Origin: a virus
Taxonomy: Duplodnaviria; Caudoviricetes
Reading direction: 5' to 3' (one strand)
Length of the DNA stretch: 64,000 bases
IMG/VR virus record: IMGVR_UViG_3300009979_000004
Coordinates: 1 to 64,000 of that record
Shown here: in pieces, positions 28,236 through 36,394 of the stretch
How positions within the stretch are numbered: the first letter of the stretch is position 1
Layout of the letters: every line of letters begins with the position of its first letter
Notes under the pieces: model-generated
The model's database searches: none
What the model was told of the DNA's origin: nothing
What the model saw: the letters and a program-made list of their open reading frames with translations, nothing else
Program-made: the position numbers and the translations under genes

Positions 28236-28730
28236 ATGAATACAACTCTTACTAAAGAGCAGGAGACTGCTTTTAGCAAAGTTCAGGATACGGAACTTGA
28301 TGATCTGCTCCAGGAGATAAGGGACAAGTTTGATAACAGGTGGTTCATACAGTCTGAAACTGTTACCAGGACTAACTGGATTGGAAAAAAGGAAAGTAGT
28401 ACACTTTACACACTGTACAATAAAATCTCTGAGACTGAGGCTATCAAGGTAAAGTTCAAGAGGAAATCTACTGTCTATACACTCGTTCCCAAACATTATA
28501 TAATGATATATCTTTACGGAATGTTGGAGGGCAATAAGAAGCGGGAAATGGAAAGAGACCATAGCTCCTATCTCATGGGAGTCTGCGAAATGAAAGCGAA
28601 GATGGAAAGGGAAAAGGAAGATCTGTTGGATTGGGTGTTTGAAGAACCTCAGTGGACTCAATGGTCTCAGGGTAAATTAGATTCCAAAGCTCTCATTGAA
28701 CAGTTTGACAAAGTAAAATACGAATTATAA
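28236..28730 (+). CDS. Hypothetical protein
   Basis: 164 aa tiled ORF. Confidence 0.7.
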   Translation: MNTTLTKEQETAFSKVQDTELDDLLQEIRDKFDNRWFIQSETVTRTNWIGKKESSTLYTLYNKISETEAIKVKFKRKSTVYTLVPKHYIMIYLYGMLEGNKKREMERDHSSYLMGVCEMKAKMEREKEDLLDWVFEEPQWTQWSQGKLDSKALIEQFDKVKYEL

Positions 28731-28912
28731 TGACTATGCAATCCGAAAGATTAGGTCAACTAATAGATGAGCTGGATAATCTGGCACATGGGTTACAGAT
28801 ACCGTTAGCTCCTAAGATTCATGTAAAGAATCTAAGTGTTATATTGCCTGAGCTGGTAAATAAATTCAAGGGATCATTTGTGGAAATCACAGGAGAGAAT
28901 CCCTGGAAATAA
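28730..28912 (+). CDS. Conserved small phage protein
   Basis: LDNLAHGLQIPL...HV..L...LPE...GENPW pattern. Confidence 0.7.
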   Translation: MTMQSERLGQLIDELDNLAHGLQIPLAPKIHVKNLSVILPELVNKFKGSFVEITGENPWK

Positions 28913-28927
28913 GGTACTTGGACAGAA

Positions 28928-29227
28928 CCTGTAAGATGGTATGCCGGGAAGAGGCAGAATGCAGGAGCTCGCCTTTGGCCAAAGGAAAACCCTGGATGTC
29001 CAGGTTAATGCACCATAACTCACGTAGATATGAAGACTTCTTACAGGAGGGCAGGCATATTGAGCCTGCGAGGCTCCTGGATCTATCTCAGGAAAGGATG
29101 TAGGATGTGAAACTACCTGACTAGCTTAACATGCCTGCTGGGCTTAGTCAGCTCCCAAGGGTGAGCAGTTGCAGTAGACCAGAAAGTGAACCACCATACT
29201 GGGATAAATAGTAAACTATTGCAGCTG
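28928..29227 (+). ncRNA. Large (~300 nt) multi-domain structured RNA candidate with a pseudoknot
   Basis: At least ten complementary segment pairs in an intergenic gap, including CCTGTAAGA/TCTTACAGG, GCAGGCAT/ATGCCTGC, CTGACTA/TAGTCAG and CAGTTGCAGTAG/CTATTGCAGCTG. Strand is inferred from G-U pairs and gene context. Confidence 0.75.
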
Positions 29228-29274
29228 AGTGCAGAGGGAACTAAAATTAGTGAGCCTAAATAAATCTTAACACT

Positions 29275-29487
29275 ATGCGATATAAAAGACCAACTCATAA
29301 AAGACTATCAGACCTCAGTGTTGTTATCAGAAAGAATACCAGGAAAGTAAAATGCCTGGAGACAGGAAAAGAGTATGGTTCTATTAAAGAAGCATCTTAC
29401 TACACAGGAGTCTCTTCAACTTTGATTTCCAGATCCTGCATACGGGGAGAAACTATAAAAGGATTTACATTTGAATATCTCAACTAA
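29275..29487 (+). CDS. Stand-alone NUMOD1/IENR1-type HTH protein
   Basis: VKCLETGKEYGSIKEASYYTGVSSTLISRSC...GFTFEY. Confidence 0.75.
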   Translation: MRYKRPTHKRLSDLSVVIRKNTRKVKCLETGKEYGSIKEASYYTGVSSTLISRSCIRGETIKGFTFEYLN

Positions 29488-36289: not shown

Positions 36290-36372
36290 TCTGGTGTAGT
36301 TCAAGTTAGAACCCTGTATAGGTCCTGTAAAAAGGCTTCAGGCGGTTGGCAGTGCAAGTCTGCTCACCAGAA
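36290..36372 (+). ncRNA. tRNA-like RNA 3 (83 nt) with an anticodon arm 11 nt longer than canonical
   Basis: Perfect acceptor TCTGGTG/CACCAGA, D-arm GTTC-AAGTTA-GAAC, T-arm GGCAG-TGCAAGT-CTGCT. Confidence 0.7.
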
Positions 36373-36394
36373 CTTAATATAAAAACTATATACA

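Follow-up and report, generated by a model that had tools for sequence, protein, structure and literature searches.

A likely twister-type self-cleaving ribozyme of expanded form between two small genes of a tailed phage

The DNA analysed here (the window) is the first 64 kb (64,000 nucleotides) of an 88.8-kb tailed-phage record of IMG/VR (IMGVR_UViG_3300009979_000004). The record is 97% complete and encodes a portal protein, a large terminase, a major head protein, a family-A DNA polymerase, a Dda-like helicase and rIIA/rIIB. Within a rightward string of small genes, a gap of 362 nt separates a 60-aa open reading frame (ORF) at 28730-28912 from a 70-aa ORF at 29275-29487 (+). The gap is a G+C island, with a G+C content of 0.47-0.49 versus about 0.35 in the flanks and 0.39 genome-wide. 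A preliminary description of this gap had proposed a pseudoknotted non-coding RNA of about 300 nt, organized in three domains over positions 28928-29227 and belonging to no recognised class. We find that the conserved RNA is about 240 nt long, occupies ~29002-29243 on the + strand, and is probably the expanded form of a twister-type self-cleaving ribozyme, from an uncatalogued subfamily restricted to phages.

The family to which this RNA belongs was reached by means of short conserved words. The exact 17-mer CAGCTCCCAAGGGTGAG (29149-29165) has matches in 37 IMG/VR contigs, 35 of which are clearly one family and align with the window on both sides of the word; a second conserved word has 54 IMG/VR matches, and a third at least 120. 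From the family loci (L127 to L303), 101 distinct units were parsed. Bacterial genomes contain 27 matches to the 17-mer, which is the chance frequency, and only about 6 of them are true members, all on contigs of metagenome-assembled genomes, so that the family is essentially phage-borne. Other routes led to no relatives. With blastn, none was found among 50,697 phage records, and an exact 27-mer taken from the second domain of the preliminary description (Domain 2, 29051-29138) was not found in IMG/VR. Neither the RNA nor the small genes are shared by 45 IMG/VR loci and 80 metagenome loci reached via the RNase H gene, by which the nearest phages are at most 60% identical, and 45 whole related records and 32 loci contain no match to R1, a model built from the single sequence of Domain 2.

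Units of the family occur in two forms. The minimal form (45 units, 97-225 nt) consists, in this order, of P1, U^AA, UGCAC, C-AYAA, CUCAC, U-U-CCCA-A-G-G, GUGAG, a P5 hairpin of any size, A, GUGCA, G-A-GGG and P1'. In the expanded form (56 units including that of the window, 242-599 nt), CUCAC is separated from the U-CCCA strand by two added arms. Arm 1 is closed by GUAG/CUAC and comprises, besides internal loops that are conserved, the second stem UCUUA/UAAGA and an insert that varies; arm 2 is closed by CUGAUUAA/UUAAUCAG around a variable insert. Four conserved blocks, A, C, E and G, follow each other along the units, and the window has all four. Leave-one-out hidden Markov models of these blocks match it at 29004-29043 (2.6e-14), 29104-29123 (4.4e-5), 29144-29176 (2.5e-11) and 29217-29249 (2.8e-5); these are their only matches in the 88.8-kb genome, and they follow the order of the family. 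Similarly, a covariance model built from 35 minimal units of other phages only (R2) has a sole hit in the 64 kb, at 29130-29245 (38.7 bits, E = 4.3e-8), which is misaligned in its 5' half because of the inserted arms.

The fold was evaluated on an alignment of 29 expanded units made with MAFFT (A2, 48 pairs including the two pseudoknots T1 and T2) and on an alignment of 35 minimal units (A3). In A2, 93% of the cells are paired, versus 34-45% when partners are slid; the corresponding values in A3 are 94.8% and 33-53%. Both sides are changed at 24 pairs of A2, versus a mean of 10.0 after shuffling, and none of 500 shuffles reached any of five measures in A2, nor did any of 500 in A3, in a control that takes no account of relatedness among units. 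A scan of all column pairs by mutual information with average product correction, which assumed no structure, placed pairs of the predicted P3, P4 and P2 at ranks 1, 2 and 3, the top pair, A34-C17, being one of the arm-1 stem. Counted pair by pair over the 101 units, compensatory changes are present in P1, P2, P4, both arms, P5, the closing pair of L4 and T1. P4 in particular occurs as CUCAC/GUGAG, CUAUC/GAUAG, CUACA/UGUAG, CUCAU/AUGAG, CUCUU/AAGAG, CCUGA/UCAGG and CCUAC/GUAGG, and it is because of these many distinct pair types and of the slid controls that we argue the covariation signal to be real. The G•U pairs are compatible with the + strand only.

In the window copy, the RNA opens with the 5' strand of P1, AGGU (29002-29005), which pairs with the 3' strand AACU (29239-29242). 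The family pair A12-G25 is AU in 34 units, UA in 18 and GC in 6, and A13-G24 is UA in 36, UG in 25 and CG in 11; 0 to 4 of 1000 shuffles reach the observed pairing, and 4 of 4 pairs are changed on both sides in A2 as in A3. The 5' side of loop L1 follows, U^A-A (29006-29008), with U in 93 of 96 units and each A in 98 of 98. P2 is formed by UGCAC (29009-29013) and GUGCA (29229-29233) and is paired in 98-100% of units; compensation is seen at 3 of its 5 pairs, as C-G to U-A in five units and as U-A to C-G and G-C to A-U in single units. Next come C29014 and the L2 linker AUAA (29014-29018), then P4, CUCAC (29019-29023) with GUGAG (29161-29165), where 98.6% of cells are paired and 4 of 5 pairs double-changed.

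The strand equivalent to twister L4, C-U-CCCA-A-G-G (29152-29160), comprises a closing pair C29152-G29160 (in the family CG 49, UA 2, UG 1, CA 3), a U29153•A29158 pair, the T1 strand C29154-C29156 with A29157, and the putative T2 base G29159; 99-101 of the 101 units have its U, CCC, A, A and G unchanged. The 3' core (29228-29238) starts with the linker A29228 and the 3' strand of P2, and continues with G29234 (conserved in 100 of 101 units), A29235 (101 of 101) and the GGG of T1 at 29236-29238 (97-99). Two pseudoknots are formed by these elements. In T1, C29154-C29156 pair with G29236-G29238 and A29157 faces A29235. In single units its third pair is A-U or U-A in place of C-G (CCU/AGG in L175, CCA/UGG in L164 and L178), and 0 of 1000 shuffles reach the observed value. 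T2 is proposed to be a single pair, C29014 with G29159; C is found in 99 of 100 units and G in 101 of 101, and both bases, being invariant, show no covariation.

Arm 1 (29024-29116), inserted between P4 and L4, is closed by GUAG (29024-29027) and CUAC (29113-29116), which covary to GUGG/CCAC and GCAG/CUGC; the pair A34-C17 is GC in 33 units, AU in 22 and GU in 1. Its second stem joins UCUUACA (29039-29045) to UGUAGGA (29099-29105), and its conserved internal loops are AUAUGAAGAC and, at 29104-29112, GAUGUGAAA. The variable insert (29046-29098) can form a two-hairpin junction in the window copy. In arm 2 (29117-29151), the stem CUGACUAG (29117-29124) / UUAGUCAG (29144-29151) encloses a 19-nt loop and departs from the family stem by a compensatory change of U-A to C-G; 97.4% of cells of this stem are paired, and 4 of 8 pairs are double-changed in A2. 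Insert lengths in arm 2 vary from 17 to 150 nt (median 53.5), and that of the window was called the shortest in the family. No unpaired bases separate P4, arm 1, arm 2 and the mini-helix of L4, which together make a perfect four-way junction.

The P5 arm (29166-29227) has a 12-bp stem (29166-29177/29216-29227) with two G•U pairs and an insert at 29178-29215. In relatives the stem reads CAGUUGUAAU/AUUACAACUG, and in A2, 8 of 11 stem pairs are double-changed and 95.6% of cells paired. The insert recurs in a phage that otherwise shares with the window only a 33%-identical terminase: window positions 29175-29220 are identical at 45 of 46 positions to 9585-9630 of L247, which belong to a minimal unit. 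The P5 stems around this near-identical insert differ by compensatory changes. Such a pattern suggests that arm modules are exchanged between ribozymes.

The comparison with about 100 relatives makes it possible to separate the helices of the preliminary description that are real from those that are not. All the helices it named are present where it placed them, as read directly from the sequence, and its view of a structured, pseudoknotted, non-coding RNA of the + strand is upheld by the covariation of the family. Its likeness to ribozymes holds as well, the conserved core being twister-like. The layout fared differently. Domain 1 (28928-29047) folds at chance level (z = -1.0 versus dinucleotide shuffles), and its closing helices use strands that belong to P2 (UGCAC 29009-29013) and to the arm-1 stem (UCUUACA 29039-29045). 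About 90 nt at the 5' end fall outside the conserved RNA. This G+C-rich leader (28913-29001, 89 nt, + strand), between the upstream stop codon and the ribozyme, holds the hairpins of Domain 1, has no match in 175 family loci, and gives a minimum free energy (MFE) with z = -0.1. Domain 2 has z = -3.3, but its closing helix 29051-29058/29131-29138 is unsupported, as it joins two variable inserts and has a counterpart in none of the 54 other expanded units. Of its hairpins, GTAG/CTAC was misassigned: in the family, CUAC 29113-29116 pairs with GUAG 29024-29027 and not with the local GUAG at 29100. The complementarity CTGACTA(29117)/TAGTCAG(29145), described as a pseudoknot or switch, is a real and covarying helix; it is the ordinary arm-2 stem, not a pseudoknot. 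The 12-bp helix 29166/29216 of Domain 3 survived entirely, being the conserved P5 stem (z = -3.5 for 29166-29227). Over the whole gap, folding energy differs only moderately from dinucleotide shuffles, with z = -1.9 for the + strand and -0.8 for the - strand.

The proposal of a new three-domain RNA class of ~300 nt at 28928-29227 draws on the existence of all its helices and on the lack of an Rfam hit. Because the closing helices of Domain 1, itself at chance level, clash with the covarying P2 and arm-1 stems, because the 5' 90 nt are not conserved, and because the core that is conserved is twister-like, this layout is contradicted by the family alignment and we consider it very improbable. 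Nor does the statement that no recognised class applies stand, since the stretch carries the defining loops, helices and T1 of twister and belongs to a large phage family.

The twister self-cleaving ribozyme was reportedly described by Roth et al. in 2014. Twisters of type P1 form Rfam family RF03160, and Osa-1-4 from Oryza sativa corresponds to PDB 4OJI. In twisters, P1, P2 and P4 are essential whereas P0, P3 and P5 are optional; the cut is made at a U-A step of L1 beside P1 (U6-A7 in Osa-1-4), and a conserved guanine (G45 in Osa-1-4) is the general base. L4 has an extra closing Watson-Crick pair and a U•A pair. T1 joins four L4 bases to L1 by three Watson-Crick pairs and an A•A pair, while T2 joins two bulged L4 bases to a conserved GC in L2 (PMC5408937, PMC6154101). 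P5 is present in about 1% of known twisters (PMC6154101).

The family shares with twister the 5'-to-3' order P1, U^AA, P2, P4, L4, P5, P2', G-A-GGG, P1', the conserved A past the scissile bond, the conserved G directly after P2, and termini within P1. It also shares the L4 closing pair, the U•A pair, the CCCA, and a T1 of three Watson-Crick pairs plus A•A. The scissile bond is predicted to lie between U29006 and A29007, because this position is next to P1 and P2 as is U6-A7 in Osa-1-4. On the same correspondence, A29007 would be the counterpart of the general-acid adenine of twister, and G29234, directly after P2, the equivalent of its catalytic guanine. By this analogy the family most likely works like twister. 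With the fold and key bases of twister, to which three extra arms are added, the RNA would then represent a variation on a known ribozyme class rather than a new kind of RNA.

Differences from twister are of two sorts. The family lacks P3, every unit has a P5 with 26-404 nt on it, two arms of ~125 nt or more are added between P4 and L4 in the expanded form, and the family is found almost only in phage contigs. Other observations weigh against the assignment as a cleaving twister. The canonical two-pair T2 (GC:GC) is replaced by one C-G pair: a single base, G29159, lies between A29158 and the closing G29160, and L4 is one base shorter because T2 is one pair. The L4 closing pair is C-G (U•G in minimal units), whereas the published one is a near-invariant G-C. 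The Rfam twister-P1 model (RF03160) has no hit at E <= 10 in the genome of the window, and no Rfam twister model matches the window or the minimal units. P1 of the window copy is weak, with 3 pairs and one G•A mismatch. A ribozyme-compatible nested fold lies 7.4 kcal/mol above the MFE for 29000-29245, and 12 when the leader is included, on a nearest-neighbour energy that excludes pseudoknots and tertiary contacts. Variation in the core is under-sampled, because the loci were gathered by exact core words. The alignment of the family to the Osa-1-4 sequence was cross-checked only by the residue numbers given in PMC5408937 and PMC6154101. Membership in the family, the helices, T1 and the invariance of the catalytic positions are established, whereas we infer cleavage and its site, as well as T2, the stacking at the junction and the biological role. 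Because of the differences in T2, closing pair, P3, P5 and detection by Rfam, we file the RNA as a twister-type variant, not as a member of the Rfam family.

A rival reading is an RNA descended from twister, or convergent with it, that does not cut and serves instead as a folded protein-binding or protective element at the 5' or 3' end of early messages. The reduced T2 and the failure of the Rfam twister models go in that direction, as do the large conserved arms, which exceed what catalysis needs, with nearly invariant arm-1 loops and a P5 insert 98% identical in an unrelated phage. We judge a non-cutting RNA unlikely all the same, since all twister catalytic positions are invariant over the 101 units while the helices vary freely, and since minimal units of ~97-120 nt retain only the twister core and P5.

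One feature of the window copy raises the question of regulation. Positions 29050-29065 of arm 1 and 29124-29139 of the arm-2 loop share a 14-bp complementarity (8+6, with a 1x1 mismatch), for which no equivalent exists in the 54 other expanded units. A regulated twister could use this bridge, or a pairing of the leader with strands of P2 and arm 1, to switch cleavage. The bridge fold dominates the MFE, and its 8-bp core is matched by about 1 in 100 shuffles. However, such complementarity was found in 0 of 54 other expanded units, and the pairing of leader to ribozyme is at shuffle level, so that this reading appears quite improbable to us; a leader acting as 'anti-ribozyme' was discarded on the same chance-level pairing. 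Moreover, the bridge need not switch anything, because it competes with no core helix. We hold it unlikely, too, that the peripheral arms, with a P5 insert 98% identical in an unrelated phage, are themselves functional modules and no filler, the nearly invariant arm-1 loops AUAUAAAGAC and GAUGUGAAA binding a host or phage factor or sensing a signal. If they were, the family would be a regulated or protein-assisted twister whose cut is timed during infection, and the arm-1/arm-2 bridge would be one way of tuning it.

Could the gap be no RNA at all? It might represent the decayed N-terminal half of a homing-endonuclease gene, the 70-aa ORF being the surviving C-terminus, or a site acting at the DNA level. 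In support of decay, a 61-aa ORF over the gap is in frame with the 70-aa ORF, and the latter resembles endonuclease C-termini: it matches the Pfam model I-HmuI_NUMOD-like with 19.6 bits, under the cut-off of 27, and the C-terminal parts of PHROG 4538, 20162 and 314, and the resemblance covers only the C-terminal DNA-binding part of HNH/GIY-YIG homing endonucleases. The frame running from the 61-aa into the 70-aa ORF is nevertheless interrupted by all three kinds of stop codon, the gap shows no similarity to proteins, and its G+C content differs from that of the ORF. A recoded or decayed coding region was rejected on account of these stops. Strand-specific base-pair covariation with G•U pairs refutes both versions of this reading, and family members adjoin unrelated genes. 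We therefore give the absence of an RNA practically no credit.

The translation of overlapping 61-aa ORFs had been named as a reason for doubting a non-coding RNA. Two such ORFs lie over the gap; neither has a Pfam or PHROG match, the one overlying the leader is a singleton, and with no relatives and no protein similarity they give no sign of coding. A 55-aa protein had been called over the ribozyme stretch. For annotation, this means that ribozyme stretches of such kind should not be called small ORFs. Neither these 61-aa ORFs nor the flanking proteins (164 aa and 70 aa) have relatives in collections of 5.8 billion and 1.84 billion proteins, and the flanking ORFs have no fused relatives in protein collections. 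The product of the 70-aa ORF, itself a singleton among the 5.8 billion, probably represents either a small DNA-binding protein or the remnant of an endonuclease.

Family units are intergenic. The nearest downstream ORF is on the same strand in 72 of 89 cases and starts at a median distance of 137 nt past the unit, versus 35 nt in the window. Neighbouring genes are not conserved, as seen from the downstream proteins of 62 units, and for this reason the NUMOD-like ORF is not taken as a partner of the RNA; a conserved partnership with a NUMOD-like protein was rejected, as those proteins share no family with the 70-aa ORF. No promoter-like or terminator-like site was found on the + strand between the flanking genes.

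Several other RNA classes were considered for the gap. At the gathering score, Rfam has no hit in the stretch, in line with the preliminary description, and at permissive thresholds the only match is to the 2'-dG-I aptamer (RF01510), at 29039-29105, with 22 bits versus a gathering score of 51. This weak match is due to the arm-1 insert, which can form a similar three-way junction; a purine or 2'-dG riboswitch was rejected because of the score, because the J2/3 strand of the ligand pocket is missing and because the insert is not conserved. The absence of group I intron signatures was borne out: CUGACUA/UAGUCAG recalls the R/S elements of such introns, but this GACUA/UAGUC resemblance comes from the arm-2 stem; a P8 is missing between the candidate strands, Rfam reports no such intron at E <= 10, exons are absent, and the flanking ORFs lack fused relatives. 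ARAGORN finds no tRNA or tmRNA in the gap, and ARAGORN and Rfam together find no RNase P, tmRNA or intron-bearing tRNA, as first stated for RNase P and tmRNA. A fold like that of hepatitis delta virus has the wrong strand order, and a twister mapping with U^AA at 29127, in the arm-2 loop, disagrees with the family alignment. When 125 unrelated loci were searched with a descriptor, 2-3 hits arose by chance.

Among catalogued phage RNAs, the suggested likeness to ROOL and GOLLD extends to being large, structured, phage-borne and near tRNA-like genes; no Rfam match to either was obtained, and the RNA of the window is much smaller, its core being a small ribozyme with peripheral arms. Twister-sister (RF02681) has similar P4 loop bases, a multi-helix junction and a position close to genes of phages. 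It is, however, described without pseudoknots and as cutting the opposite strand (PMC5408937, PMC6154101), whereas in our family T1 is backed by compensatory changes, the U^AA loop is of the twister kind, and Rfam gives no twister-sister hit. Hatchet, hammerhead and pistol ribozymes share the phage genomic niche and a presumed cutting of polycistronic messages, but their folds are unrelated to that of the family. Among the papers searched, none was found that describes the present subfamily.

The most likely role of the RNA is to cut the polycistronic early message that contains it, and as a twister-type ribozyme it would act as follows. It would be transcribed within a rightward early or middle polycistronic message, where P1, P2, P4 and P5 would form first. 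The strand C-U-CCCA-A-G-G (29152-29160) would then dock, its CCC pairing with GGG 29236-29238 (T1) and G29159 with C29014 (the reduced T2), and docking would place G29234 and A29007 at the U29006-A29007 linkage. The peripheral parts would be arms 1 and 2 and the long arm of P5; the four-way junction could hold P4 and L4 in a stack, as ordinary twisters do. Attack of the 2'-OH of U29006 on the adjacent phosphate would leave the message in two pieces. A 2',3'-cyclic phosphate would terminate the upstream piece, just past the hairpin CCUGGAUGUCCAGG. The downstream piece, beginning with a 5'-OH at A29007, would keep the folded ribozyme as a cap-like 5' structure and carry the 70-aa gene with the later genes. 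Cleavage of this kind would likely make the genes before the cut independent, in stability and translation, of those after it. That twisters of bacteria and phages serve in processing has been proposed, not established (PMC6765202).

The arrangement of units varies between phages. Minimal units are often found immediately upstream of expanded ones, as in L140 (9871-10351, - strand), L186 (3176-4226, - strand), L146, L156, L128 and L134, and in L140 the P1 3' strand of the minimal unit overlaps the start of the next unit (GAGGGAUAAUGCACC). L173, L185 and L180 contain units with blocks A, C and G in which the L4 block is unrecognisable or replaced; these may be degenerate or rearranged copies. 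On the L128 contig (191-325, 8424-8820, 10900-11241), a family unit is accompanied within a few kb by several tRNAs, a tmRNA (63 bits) and a Hatchet ribozyme (82 bits), the Hatchet being ~1 kb from the family unit; self-cleaving ribozymes are known to cluster in phage regions, in keeping with this arrangement. Two tRNA-type features were noted elsewhere in the window. At 24437-24561 (+), an Rfam tRNA match of 31.7 bits (gathering score 29) over 125 nt points to a tRNA-like gene with an insert of ~50 nt, missed by ARAGORN and by the run in gathering mode. At 36290-36373 (+), ARAGORN finds an 84-nt tRNA-Thr (GGU).

The chemistry of twister is well understood, and its biology is still open (PMC6765202). 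The present subfamily is very common in phage genomes, with at least 120 IMG/VR matches to one conserved word, and goes undetected by the standard RNA catalogue. Its core would tolerate a one-pair T2 and a four-way junction at L4, which is relevant to the structure and engineering of ribozymes. Its minimal and expanded forms, often in tandem, lie within strings of early genes, immediately before genes. These properties offer a direct test of what use self-cleaving ribozymes may be to phages, for instance in message processing or differential stability.

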